Assembly: GCF_024502345.1 (NCBI RefSeq) | Contig: NZ_JALDNN010000003.1 | From: Escherichia coli | GTDB taxonomy: Bacteria > Pseudomonadota > Gammaproteobacteria > Enterobacterales > Enterobacteriaceae | Strand: one strand, 5' to 3' | DNA: 64,000 bases | Made by a program: the position numbers | In this document: positions 9,001 through 12,000 of the stretch, piece by piece | Layout: the number at the start of each line of letters is the position of its first letter | Position numbering within the stretch: position 1 is the stretch's first letter

Positions 9001-12000
9001 CCGGGTTAATGACTAGACCATTGCTTTTGCGTGCGCCGTTACCGGTACGCTCCAGGTAGGTGCGCAGGCTGATATCGTTGTTAGCGGTTTTTACATCATT
9101 TTCGACAGTGGACATGGTGCCTTCCTTTTAGTTTTCGTTTAGGGTGTTTGTTCGCTACAAAACAACAATACCAGGTTCGATTCATTTCCTAATAACCTGA
9201 GGCGAAAAAAAAGTAACTTTTTTTCCGGGGGTTATAGTACGCGATCCGTCCGTTTTAAATTCTCGCTAAGGAGGGCAAATTTCACTTTAGTGTGAAAAGC
9301 GGGTACATAAAGCAGGAATATGTCGAAAAAGTTACTTTCCCGGTTGCCTGAAAAAATGCCGTTGCAGCAAACACAAGGTGTGAACACCCCCCCCGCCCCG
9401 GCGGCTCCGGGCAAAGGAGTATCCGATGAAGCTTTCCCGGCAGACCACAAATGATACGGCTGTAATCGAAGGCACCCGCAGATTACCGACCATATCGCCT
9501 CCCAGCGAGCCACCGAAGCCAAAAAAGACGGCATGAATTTTAATGCAGGCGTTGAGCTTGCATCTAAAAGGAACTGTGCAACGAGGACAAACATTACCAT
9601 GATTGAACACCGCACAGAGATGCGCCAAACGGCCATTAAATCGCTTCAGGAAGCCGAAGAAGCATTGACGGCACTGGCTATGTCCTATGAGCTACAGCCC
9701 GATGATAAGGCCAGTTCGTGTCATCCACGGACCGGTACTCTCTCCACGGCCAGCCAGGTACGGAAATTGCGCCGTGTCGTCGAAAAGCAGAAAACTTGAA
9801 ATTCGACAAGGCGGCGGGTAGCTATTTCCTGCATGTACAAACTAACAAGGGTTTAGCCGACGATAGAAAGGAAAAAAGGGTTTCCCCGACCGGAGAAACC
9901 CTTTTCTAAAGGTGCCATTAGCTTGCTGGCCCACATTCTGAAATGAGGGGGGTCGCCCCCCCTCTTTCAGCTACTTACCGGATTCGTAGTCCATCACAGC
10001 CGACACTTCCCGTGTACCGTCTTTCAGCCTCAGTTCGCAGAGCGAATTGCGCGTAAGCCAGGTGAATATCAACAGCGTAAGACATACTATCAATACGCAC
10101 AAAACAACGGGTTGGTTCGGCAGTTTCATGGCCTTCTTCTCCTTGCATTTAAGCGGGTAAGAGGCTACTCTGAATGTGACTAGCATACAGGGGCCTCGGG
10201 TTAATTTGAAAAAATTACTCGGGGCTTTCTGCTTTTTACCACAGTCAAACAGTGAATCTGCTGGCTGGGGCAAAAGCCTCCAGCACCGAGGTTATTATAC
10301 CACCCCGCCCCTTTTAAACGAACAGATCGTTCTCCTAAATATTTAATAAGTAAGTATTTCAGGTTTTGCTGCTTCGCAGGCTGTAACAGCAGGTGTCTGA
10401 CGTAATAACTGATTAAACAGACGGATTCGAATCTCAACACTCAACGACGCCAGCTCGCCTGTTCCCCCGCTTCTTTCCGGCTGTAATCAGTCCGTTTTCG
10501 TACCAGCGATCAGTGACAAACGGTGAGCACGAACACTACTGTGCCGGAGGCTGTCCGGGTAATGGGCGATTTTCTCCAGTTCCTCATCGAGGCGGGTATA
10601 CGTCAGCCTCCTGATTTTCAAGATTTCCTTGTGAAGCCAGCGTTTGATAAAGGGATTGCCGGAAAGCAGTACCAGGTCTGCATCCTCCACTTCATCAAAA
10701 AGCCAGACGGGTTTTGCCGGAGTAAGGCGGTAGAGCCAGGTGCGGGAAAACTCCCCCGTTGCAATCAGAAACCAGACAACCATGCCAAGTGCGAACTCGA
10801 TGACCAGCATCAGGGTAAACTGAATATCCCGGACGTCAGGCTCTCCGGTAAAGCTCATTAGGCGGTCGCCAGTTGCCAGACGCTGAATAATACAGACCAG
10901 CATCAGCAGAGCCAGTAACAGCGCCATGAGCAGCCCGCCGTTCACTTCAAAAGTAGCTTTCTGGACGCGATCAGGCGGCACCTGCTTACGGTAGCGGCCG
11001 ACCACATCACCAATCATTACCCTGATGGCTATGCGTTCTTCATCGACCGTTGTTTCGGTAAATCCGGACGGGCCCGTTTCTGTTTGATTCATGTACCCTC
11101 TCCTCTCTCTGAAAAATAATGGTAAGACGCAAGCTGATCATACCAGGTGAGCAGGAGTGGTTTTGTCGGTTAAAGGCTGGAAAAAAACGGTTAAAAAAAG
11201 AGGGAAATGACAGCAAGAAGGTGGGATGCAGTAAGCGGCTTTGGTTCCCTCCGGTTCTGTGGGGAGGAAACGGCCAGAACAGCAGACCGATACGATGGGC
11301 GGGCGCTATTTTGTATCCAGAATTCGTGCCTTTTCTTCCCGCGTCGCCAGTCGGGCACTTCCGGAACGGTCGCGGATCAGCAGTGGCTTTTCCTTTTTCC
11401 AACCAGTGATAGCCGTTTCCCCGAAACGACGCGGTGCATTGCCATTCCAGCTGGCAATCACGTGATTATCGTGTACTTCCTTGATGACGACAGAATGAAG
11501 AGTCACCGTCTTAATGGTGGTGTTTCCCATTTTGGTCCGGGAGAGTGACCAGACGGTCATCCCCACCTCCAGCTGACTGAGTTTCATCTTTACTCCGGTA
11601 ATATCGGGATACATCATTAAACGACGTGGAGACGTAGGTTAGCATAAGCACTCACAGCGGATACTGCCGCCAGATAACAGGGTGAGGTATCCGCCATGAG
11701 CAGTCTTTACGGCTGGCGTTATTCGGCCAGGGCGCGGGTAATAGACGCACGCTGACGCTGGCGCTCAGCCTTACGCTGGCTGCGGCGATATAGCGGCTTC
11801 GCGGCAGCGTAGCGACAATCTTCCGGGTGGTACCAGCAACAGCCGCAGGGCTCAGGCTGGGGTTTTCCGGCAAGTCCGAATGGTTTCATAATGTCACCTT
11901 TTAAATGGAATAATGTTCAGGTCCCGTCCATCAGGCCACGGGTTCATTAATGAAGCGGCGTTGCATAAACAGGTACAGATAACCCTCTGGCGAGAACATA

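Follow-up and report, generated by a model that had tools for sequence, protein, structure and literature searches.

The closest described relatives of the locus considered here are hok/sok (parB) of plasmid R1 and flm of plasmid F. Each carries, from 5′ to 3′ on the toxin strand, a promoter, the tac element, an anti-Shine–Dalgarno (anti-SD) sequence, a leader Shine–Dalgarno (SD) sequence and AUG, and the promoter of the antisense RNA Sok, followed by the hok SD, hok itself, a hairpin directly after the stop codon, the fbi element and a terminator. Sok is encoded in cis, antisense to the leader SD and AUG, and the leader AUG, 58 nt upstream of the hok AUG, begins a separate 70-aa frame, mok. 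In R1, the nascent transcript is held closed by a metastable 5′ hairpin, translation across the hok start region matters while the Mok product is dispensable, and toxicity of Hok is abolished by substitutions at K2, C11, V12, L17, M46, and Y48 and lost in mutants of the hok AUG (PMC9841398). Chromosomal hokA-E of E. coli and the plasmid loci pnd and srnB encode more distant members of the same Hok/Gef protein family and are compared with the present locus at the protein level.

The locus described here lies in a 64,000-nucleotide stretch of the Escherichia coli contig NZ_JALDNN010000003.1 (assembly GCF_024502345.1), hereafter the window. The element order and spacing of R1 and F are kept from the promoter to the terminator, as is the position of Sok over the leader SD and AUG. 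On the strength of its homology to R1 hok/sok, the locus is very probably an active type I toxin–antitoxin module of the hok/sok family, borne by an IncHI1 plasmid. A hok/sok module is already catalogued for IncHI1 resistance plasmids such as R27; the single unusual point is that the small upstream frame, which ordinarily serves only to get hok translated, is continuous with the toxin gene.

The hok gene and its plasmid setting

The toxin gene occupies positions 9971-10129 on the minus strand (codons from 10129 to 9974, stop codon at 9973-9971), specifies 52 aa, and is preceded by an SD region with a conserved AAGGAG at approximately 10132-10143. The product matches Pfam HOK_GEF (PF01848; E = 5.4e-19, 68 bits against a cut-off of 22) and, over residues 1-52 of 52, the NCBIfam model NF007279 “Hok family toxin” (124 bits against a cut-off of 73); its match to the HokA model is weak and falls under the cut-off (47 bits against 89). 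In a gap-free alignment it is identical to R1 Hok at 38 of 52 residues (73%), with the same C-terminus, ...YESGK, the end at which added tags inactivate Hok; the 52-aa form is likewise shared with F flm. The full-length family matches and this identity bear out the canonical 52-aa Hok of the preliminary description. Loss of conserved residues, which would have spoken against that identification, was looked for on the R1 alignment, and all six of the toxicity-critical residues listed above proved identical. Variable sites in the body of hok number 19, 16, and 39 at first, second, and third codon positions, a third-position excess typical of purifying selection.

Across 551 bp, the window is identical (100%) to the IncHI1 plasmids R27 (ORF R0101) and pHCM1, and the R27 annotation contains a CDS of the same extent as hok (9971-10129). 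No difference from these plasmids is present within the locus, and its neighbors are also shared, namely, a 201-aa ORF, the ParB-like gene R0104, IS1, and corA. Alignment with F flm extends over the entire locus (79% column identity over about 500 nt), as does alignment with 55 other hok loci. The leader matches Rfam RF01794 at 10127-10288 on the hok-mRNA strand, ending at the hok AUG, and scores 89.1 bits (gathering score, 59) over model positions 1-157 of 157. Recognition of the locus as a hok/sok-type system, and as a known one, is therefore upheld by Pfam, NCBIfam, and Rfam, by full-length homology to F flm and R1, and by the same sequence in R27 and pHCM1. The interval first assigned to it, 9938-10330, was given without a strand, which proved to be the minus strand for hok; it takes in the hok promoter, leader, Sok gene, hok, and first hairpin but misses fbi (9911-9917) and the terminator (9872-9907). 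Public records of the locus disagree: the length given for Hok is 39, 52, or 71 aa, and some records add a “DUF5431 pseudogene”.

In sampled stretches, positions 7438-25000 and 39001-64000 of the window match IncHI1 plasmids at 99.8-99.9%, and IncHI trh genes, including trhB and trhC, lie within the matched right part. The plasmid origin first proposed for the surroundings of hok is thus borne out over a wider region. To the left, the IncHI1 backbone breaks off at approximately 7438, where an IS5-family element and an accessory segment intervene; in this the window differs from R27 and pHCM1. A chromosomal origin, suspected from the nearby corA (13291-14256) and IS1, was rejected because R27 has corA, ysgD, and IS1 at the same place and because the IncHI trh genes lie to the right. 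Hok had also been placed next to a ParB-like gene. That gene (7910-9115, minus) does lie on the same strand, 855 bp downstream of hok, but two small ORFs, hypothetical proteins in the R27 annotation, stand between them, and the ParB match is weak: it is confined to the helix-turn-helix (HTH) domain (Pfam HTH_ParB PF17762, 25.5 bits against 22.6), and the score against TIGR00180 is under the cut-off (23.7 bits against 58.45). BLASTP detected no similarity between this protein and the ParB-like protein of the F leading region, and an analogy with the F leading-region module (ssb, DUF905, ParB-like gene, psiB/psiA, flm) was set aside as a loose resemblance with dissimilar ParB-like proteins.

RNA elements of the hok mRNA and Sok

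An extended −10 box, TGgTATAAT, can be read at 10294-10302 (minus) as the hok promoter, unlike that of R1 and F, with no good −35 hexamer to be read at this promoter. It stands 6 nt from the conserved GG(C/U)GCU of the mRNA 5′ end, as does the TATGAT box of F flm. A generic promoter scan recovered neither the hok nor the Sok promoter, returning only an internal chance match, and both were therefore placed by homology. The predicted full-length hok mRNA, of approximately 422 nt, would extend over 9866-10287, with its 5′ end set by homology to the R1 +1 position and its 3′ end at the terminator U-run; the modeled molecule has a minimum free energy (MFE) of −155.5 kcal/mol (z = −4.2 against shuffles).

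In the MFE fold, nucleotides 1-7 of this RNA, the tac element 5′-GGUGCUG (10281-10287, minus), pair with the fbi element 5′-UGGCACC (9911-9917, minus) in a 7-bp helix that forms the fold-back between the two ends. Between its first 20 nt and the 3′ region, the RNA forms a predicted duplex of −22.9 kcal/mol; the value for an R1-type control is −20.3 kcal/mol. Among 20 diverse loci, the helix is 100% paired, with both sides changed at 2 of its 7 pairs. The changes are compensatory: GGCGCUU/AAGCGCC in R1 and F corresponds to GGUGCUG/UGGCACC in the window, and fbi reads UAGCACC in one other locus (L075) and CGGCACC in an IncHI2-type locus (L135), where it gives a G-C pair at position 7.

A local 5′ hairpin at 10264-10284 (minus), which appears in folds of 3′-truncated RNA and of the leader alone, is the counterpart of the metastable hairpin of R1, and a like role may be assigned to it from the R1 description. 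The anti-SD (ucb) sequence GCCCCG (10220-10225, minus) pairs in the MFE fold with CGAGGC (GCC-CG with CG-GGC), thereby sequestering the leader SD; in the 20 loci, this 5-bp helix never varies and is always paired (100%), and it hence carries no covariation information. The leader 5′ of the anti-SD is shorter than in R1 and F. A tac/ucb duplex could form with −16.6 kcal/mol, and in MFE folds of 3′-truncated RNA and of the leader alone, the leader SD is still paired, the opening not being reproduced.

Directly after the hok stop codon, a GC-rich hairpin, GAGGGGGGG-CGAC-CCCCCCUC, occupies 9940-9968 (minus) and has a homologous hairpin in all aligned loci. The GC-rich 3′ hairpin of the preliminary description is thus real, but the true terminator lies elsewhere, at 9872-9907 (minus), where the terminator scan and the MFE fold place a 16-bp stem followed by UUUUUU, with the U-run continuing to approximately 9866; a homologous terminal hairpin is visible in the multi-locus alignment. 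The hairpin at 9940-9968 is probably the protective 3′ stem-loop expected on a processed, translatable mRNA rather than a terminator. Both stems are only 51-68% paired in the MAFFT alignment, in which indels shift them out of register, and because of this, the pairing counts were used neither for nor against them.

On the plus strand, the Sok promoter consists of a −35 box, TTGCAT (10143-10148), a 17-bp spacer, and a −10 box, TACTCT (10166-10171); it is homologous to, and differs in both boxes from, the TTGCGC-17-TATCCT of R1 and F, and TTGC and TAnnnT are invariant across the aligned loci. The predicted Sok RNA, with ends placed by homology at approximately 10178-10237 (plus), is about 60 nt long: its first 10 nt would form a single-stranded 5′ tail, a long hairpin spans 10188-10231, and a U-run follows at 10233-10237. 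Its candidate fold has an energy of −21.3 kcal/mol (z = −3.98), and none of 200 shuffles was as stable. The predicted RNA is complementary to both the leader SD (10194-10197) and the leader AUG (10184-10186), and a cis-encoded Sok gene with its own promoter and terminator can accordingly be read at the level of sequence.

While homology, reading frames, and RNA elements with their covariation are observed at the window locus itself, its transcript ends, their processing, the action of Sok, toxicity, plasmid stabilization, and the form of protein made are projected here from R1. A stable hok mRNA of approximately 422 nt would be transcribed from the extended −10 promoter and kept untranslatable by tac/fbi pairing together with the anti-SD/SD hairpin. 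Slow trimming from the 3′ end to the GC-rich hairpin would remove fbi, and the trimmed RNA would refold such that the leader ribosome-binding site opens. Short-lived Sok would pair over this site and block translation, forming a Sok/hok-mRNA duplex of the kind that is cut by RNase III in R1. On plasmid loss, Sok would decay first, the leader would be translated, and the membrane toxin Hok would kill the cell, and it is in this manner that we infer post-segregational killing by the window locus. Ribosomes starting at the leader AUG should read on into hok and yield a 71-aa product; alternatively, they may merely open the hok start site, yielding the 52-aa form.

A leader reading frame continuous with hok

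The leader SD, GAGG (10194-10197, minus), is homologous to the R1 mok SD at +104-107 (R1 coordinates from PMC9841398 and locus L006), and the surrounding CGAGGC is invariant in multi-locus alignments. The leader start codon (10184-10186, minus) is homologous to the mok AUG and lies 7 nt past GAGG. From here to the hok AUG, the distance is 57 nt, against 58 nt in R1 and F, with the 1-nt gap relative to F falling directly after the leader ATG. The leader is therefore in frame with hok, and in place of the separate Mok, a predicted 71-codon ORF (9971-10186, minus), consisting of a 19-codon leader plus Hok, runs from its own SD through the hok SD and hok AUG with no stop codon between. Alignment to R1 and F, proposed earlier as the means of placing mok and Sok, consequently placed Sok but not mok, since the start codon corresponding to that of mok shares the hok frame. 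The out-of-frame 70-aa Mok of the R1 paradigm is absent from the window locus, and because the R1 Mok product is dispensable (PMC9841398), a separate mok was not treated as defining the family.

What survives of the Mok frame is a 57-codon remnant (9975-10148, minus), open only from an ATG that precedes hok by 19 nt; it has no SD, and TAA stands immediately upstream of this ATG. It matches Pfam DUF5431 at profile positions 14-70 of 70 (E = 2.9e-18), and PGAP marks it as an incomplete pseudogene. Read on the opposite strand, its ATG (10146-10148) is the CAT of TTGCAT, the Sok −35 box. A CUG that follows the leader SD by 3 nt in the Mok frame was considered as a start codon combined with UAA-AUG reinitiation at 10148. 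It was rejected as implausible: it stands too close to the SD, CUG initiates weakly, and other in-frame lineages lack the codon.

The in-frame layout is found in 9 of the 63 unique hok loci sampled (approximately 14%), which fall into at least three sequence lineages, and homologues of exactly 71 aa make up at least 25 protein clusters with 62-99% identity, some of them named Hok family toxin by NCBI. In-frame loci occur on the IncHI1 plasmids R27 and pHCM1, on IncHI2-type plasmids, on some F-like plasmids, and in other Enterobacteriaceae. The IncHI2-type hok (cluster P0006, e.g., L135) has the in-frame 19-codon leader, tac, and the flanking 201-aa gene as in the window; its Hok plus leader is 83% identical to that of the window, the alignment including this locus has a mean column identity of about 90%, and the terminator stem of L135 carries compensatory changes. 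Several IncHI2-type copies (L132, L134) carry an insertion sequence, either in the leader or just behind the post-stop hairpin.

No description of an in-frame mok/hok layout was found in the open-access literature, and the latest large survey of Hok proteins left Mok unanalyzed and cut away N-terminal extensions of this kind, presuming them to be artefacts (bioRxiv 10.1101/2025.08.07.668861, with 32,532 RefSeq hok loci in Table S1). A quite possible, if tentative, reading is that these loci form an in-frame hok subfamily without Mok, in which Sok directly controls the upstream start of the toxin and the primary product is an N-terminally extended Hok. The extension would add 19 residues of net positive charge, and the layout would be simpler than the three-gene paradigm of R1. 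Within the 19 leader codons, variable sites number 9, 9, and 8 by codon position, giving no signal of protein constraint, and the notion of the extension as a selected protein domain was dropped on this lack of periodicity. Frame 0 was also found open across the leader in the mok-type loci checked by reading (R1 and F). On account of this open frame and of the absence of protein-level constraint on the extra codons, the in-frame leader may have arisen as a neutral variant within easy reach and not as an adaptation.

Activity and role of the locus

An active locus whose main role in IncHI1 plasmids is other than segregational stabilization, whether conjugative establishment, plasmid competition, or phage defense, is improbable, though it is the alternative that survives best. 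The only data found that bear on stabilization come from the Del7 deletion of R27 (90,001-96,150), which was obtained and did not lower plasmid stability in E. coli MG1655 (PMC4853401); the interval removes both R0101 and the ParB-like R0104. Such a result is expected if partition and replication already hold loss below detection. Other indications of a different role come from position: hok/sok loci have been reported in plasmid leading regions, according to work cited in a recent preprint (bioRxiv 10.1101/2025.08.07.668861); F flm is in the leading region beside ssb, DUF905, a ParB-like gene, and psiB/psiA; an in-frame relative (P0038) directly follows psiB-psiA; and in R27, genes for DUF905 and for a ParB-HTH protein lie close to hok. 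Against these stand the dissimilarity by BLASTP of the window and F leading-region ParB-like proteins and a recent re-test in which R1 hok/sok was insufficient for T4 defense (PMC13047441), and roles in establishment, competition, or phage defense are in any case compatible with post-segregational killing.

It is very unlikely that the locus is a decayed, non-functional relic in which loss of 1 nt destroyed mok and left hok untranslatable, to be carried along on a conserved backbone. The Mok (DUF5431) frame, open only from profile codon 14 and lacking an SD, would fit such decay, as would its PGAP pseudogene flag and the absence of a stability phenotype in Del7, and the 100% identity among IncHI1 plasmids says little about hok because the whole backbone is approximately 99.9% conserved. 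Decay is, however, hard to reconcile with the diverged relatives, in which the in-frame layout is kept from 83% aa identity (IncHI2-type) down to 62% (other genera), always as exactly 71 codons without a stop, and with its appearance in at least three sequence lineages. The third-position excess in the body of hok (39 against 19 and 16), the compensatory nature of the tac/fbi changes, and the intact Sok promoter, SD sequences of both leader and hok, and R1 toxicity-critical residues argue in the same direction. Moreover, in R1, only translation across the hok start matters (PMC9841398), and this translation is what an in-frame leader supplies.

Least credible is a persisting two-frame layout in which a Mok-like protein of 57 codons in the DUF5431 frame, translated from the ATG at 10146-10148, drives hok expression. 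In its favor are the DUF5431 match of ORF 9975-10148 and the PGAP feature that begins at the start of this ORF. That match, though, is expected at any hok locus because the frame overlaps hok, and this ATG has no purine-rich SD upstream (CCUCUUACCCGCUUAAAUG), lies outside the Sok-complementary 10178-10237 and so beyond Sok control, is merely the complement of the Sok −35 variant TTGCAT (TTGCGC in R1), and has no counterpart as a Mok-frame start codon in the in-frame loci L010, L014 group, and L060.

The locus is of little consequence in itself; it confirms that this stretch of the window is IncHI1 backbone carrying the long-annotated Hok homologue R27 R0101. A correct map of its RNA elements helps to settle the inconsistent annotation of the locus. 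Should the in-frame leader be translated, hok loci of a widespread class, borne by IncHI resistance plasmids of clinical importance, would function without Mok and produce a longer toxin, which would provide a natural test of the view that it is the translation of mok, and not its product, that counts.

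Toxin gene and plasmid setting

The minus strand at 9971-10129 encodes a 52-aa protein that is matched by Pfam HOK_GEF (E=5.4e-19) and, over its whole length, by the NCBIfam Hok-family model (124 bits against a cut-off of 73), and that is identical to R1 Hok at 38 of 52 positions with no gaps, which places the Hok toxin of the preliminary description far beyond chance. In the alignment to R1 Hok, K2, C11, V12, L17, M46, and Y48, at each of which substitution abolished R1 Hok toxicity (PMC9841398), are all kept. The hok/sok locus originally delimited at 9938-10330 is present, but its strand was unstated and the fbi site and terminator fall outside that interval.

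The proposed plasmid origin also holds. R27 and pHCM1 (both IncHI1) and some 200 further plasmids share the 551 bp enclosing the locus at 100% identity. Across 7438-25000 and 39001-64000 the identity to IncHI1 plasmids is 99.8-99.9%, and the match includes the transfer genes trhB/trhC. A chromosomal origin, suggested by corA, was rejected because R27 has the same neighbours around hok, including IS1 and captured corA. IS1 (insA/insB, 12440-13137) adjoins a full-length chromosomal-type corA magnesium transporter (13291-14256), as in R27 R0094-R0096, and the pair is an old host-DNA capture on the IncHI1 backbone. At its left end the backbone match begins at 7400-7438, beside an IS5-family transposase ORF (322 aa, 6412-7380, within 6412-7437), a junction occupied by ISKpn26 in relatives; compared with R27, DUF905 and other backbone genes upstream of the ~7438 junction are displaced. 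The accessory segment at 1-6356, with integrases and ISLad2, matches other E. coli plasmids, of ~304 kb, at 99.9% identity.

The locus is already catalogued, since the original R27 annotation (supplement, PMC4853401) lists the toxin as ORF R0101, "73% identical to flmA of F", and the ParB-like gene as R0104. This last gene (7910-9115, minus strand, 401 aa), described as adjacent to hok, lies on the same strand but 855 bp downstream, and its ParB character is weak: the Pfam ParB HTH domain scores 25.5 bits (cut-off 22.6) and TIGR00180 falls under its cut-off. Directly upstream of hok is a gene for a 201-aa predicted membrane protein (10487-11092, minus strand), a neighbour of hok that is conserved in IncHI1 plasmids and in those of IncHI2 type (L132, L135); no family was found for it, DUF5676 matching only below threshold and NCBIfam giving no match.

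RNA elements and proposed mechanism

Alignment with F flm spans the locus from end to end at 79% column identity. Further alignments set it against 55 more hok loci, collected by scanning genomes and metagenomes, and against a diverse group of 19 full-length loci. R1 coordinates come from PMC9841398 and were checked against R1-type sequence. All elements of the R1 paradigm can be located. On the minus strand these are the hok promoter with extended -10 TGgTATAAT (10302-10294), the predicted mRNA 5' end (G10287), tac GGUGCUG (10287-10281), a local 5' hairpin (10284-10264), anti-SD GCCCCG (10225-10220), leader SD GAGG (10197-10194), leader AUG (10186-10184), hok SD region (about 10143-10132), hok itself (10129-9971), the GC-rich post-stop hairpin noted at the outset (9968-9940), fbi UGGCACC (9917-9911), and the terminator (9907-9872). 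The plus strand carries the Sok promoter, TTGCAT-17 bp-TACTCT (10143-10171), and a predicted Sok RNA of about 60 nt (10178-10237) that folds into a 10-nt 5' tail, long hairpin, and U-run (-21.3 kcal/mol, z = -3.98). Rfam RF01794 ("sok") matches 10127-10288 with 89 bits on the hok-mRNA (minus) strand, ending at the hok AUG. Although named "sok antitoxin", this model has a consensus ending in the hok AUG and, as built, represents the hok leader rather than antisense Sok; the match therefore documents a conserved hok leader, and its strand should not be taken for that of Sok.

The modelled 422-nt hok mRNA folds with z = -4.2, and in its minimum free energy structure nt 1-7 are paired with fbi, immediately ahead of the terminal hairpin; the duplex of the 5' 20 nt with the 3' region reaches -22.9 kcal/mol (R1-type control, -20.3). 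The tac/fbi helix covaries across loci: GGCGCUU/AAGCGCC in more than 90 R1/F-type loci, GGUGCUG/UGGCACC in the window, GGUGCUG/UAGCACC in L075, and GGUGCUG/CGGCACC in IncHI2-type L135. Among 20 distinct sequences, all seven pairs are 100% paired, two with changes on both sides. The anti-SD/SD helix, being invariant in these sequences, is consistent with the R1 model but uninformative on covariation, and both 3' hairpins occur in every sequence, yet the alignment does not keep them in register, which makes their pair counts unusable.

The best-supported reading transfers the R1 mechanism to this locus. A stable, folded-back hok mRNA would be made, slow 3' trimming would take off fbi, and the RNA would refold to expose the leader ribosome-binding site, which short-lived Sok would block; upon plasmid loss, leader and hok would be translated and the cell killed. 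Of this scheme, the elements were observed in sequence, together with covariation, whereas mRNA ends and processing, the action of Sok, toxicity, and toxin size are presumed from R1. In the fold of the truncated hok RNA alone the SD stayed closed, and refolding after processing is for that reason inferred from R1. The only experimental datum found on the locus is negative: deletion Del7 of R27 (90,001-96,150), in which both R0101 and R0104 are lost, could be made, and plasmid stability in MG1655 was no lower (PMC4853401). Such an outcome is unsurprising given the several replicons and partition modules of the plasmid; post-segregational killing is here a prediction from homology. A phage-defence role is poorly supported even for R1 hok/sok (PMC13047441).

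An in-frame leader without a separate mok

The mok (leader) AUG of R1 and F precedes the hok AUG by 58 nt and lies in the +1 frame. In the window, a 1-nt gap directly after the leader ATG reduces this distance to 57 nt, so that the leader, which could be placed by alignment to R1 and F as Sok was, is in frame with hok; with no intervening stop, the two form one 71-codon ORF (19-aa leader plus Hok). The Mok (DUF5431) frame is labelled an incomplete pseudogene by PGAP, and its open stretch begins only at an ATG at 10148. This ATG lacks an SD, follows a TAA, and falls beyond the stretch targeted by Sok; it is no more than the complement of TTGCAT, the variant -35 box of Sok.

This arrangement is not peculiar to the window locus. 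Among 63 unique loci the SD-proximal start is at -57 in nine and at -58 in 54, the in-frame loci fall in at least three sequence lineages, and the IncHI2-type relative shares the layout. When the 71-aa ORF was searched against proteins, the hits included at least 25 distinct clusters whose members are exactly 71 aa long (62-99% identity, several genera), one on at least 1000 contigs and some named "Hok family toxin" by NCBI. The extra residues seem tolerated rather than selected, because variable leader sites lack codon periodicity in both in-frame (9/9/8 by codon position) and mok-type loci (7/8/6), unlike the hok body (19/16/39 and 28/19/41). One 71-aa in-frame variant (cluster P0038, loci L136-L138; leader MLDTSRLAAYCALRKEKKA) lies just downstream of psiB-psiA, in the leading region as flm does in F, showing that the layout occurs in F-like contexts too; for the window locus the F leading-region analogy is loose.

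Identical loci are annotated inconsistently in public records (L001, L002, P0001-P0038): R27 (L001, 6122-6280) has the 52-aa Hok, some RefSeq records (L002, NZ_CP033094, 622-799) start Hok at an internal TTG, giving 39 aa, and add a "DUF5431 pseudogene", and other records and gene callers have the 71-aa form. At several loci from metagenomes and plasmids (L040, L048, L054, L093 of one kind; L066, L083, L130 of another; L132, L134) the 5' leader (promoter, tac, anti-SD) is swapped for unrelated, apparently mobile-element sequence, or an IS directly follows the post-stop hairpin, with loss of fbi; the Sok promoter region and hok stay intact, and these look like natural inactivation or rewiring events. 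R1-identical hok/sok on short contigs of Streptomyces morookaense (L006, 4.9 kb) and an Oscillibacter MAG (L007, 5.0 kb; Firmicutes) most likely reflects contamination or mis-binning, with plasmid or vector DNA of E. coli as the source, and not genuine hosts.

No description of the in-frame arrangement was found in the open-access literature, and a recent preprint on Hok diversity (bioRxiv 10.1101/2025.08.07.668861) did not analyse Mok and trimmed upstream extensions. Identical to the R27/pHCM1 locus and alignable end to end with F flm, the window locus is, as initially interpreted, an already known hok/sok-family module, here on an IncHI1 plasmid, and its in-frame, Mok-less leader is the sole point deserving follow-up.
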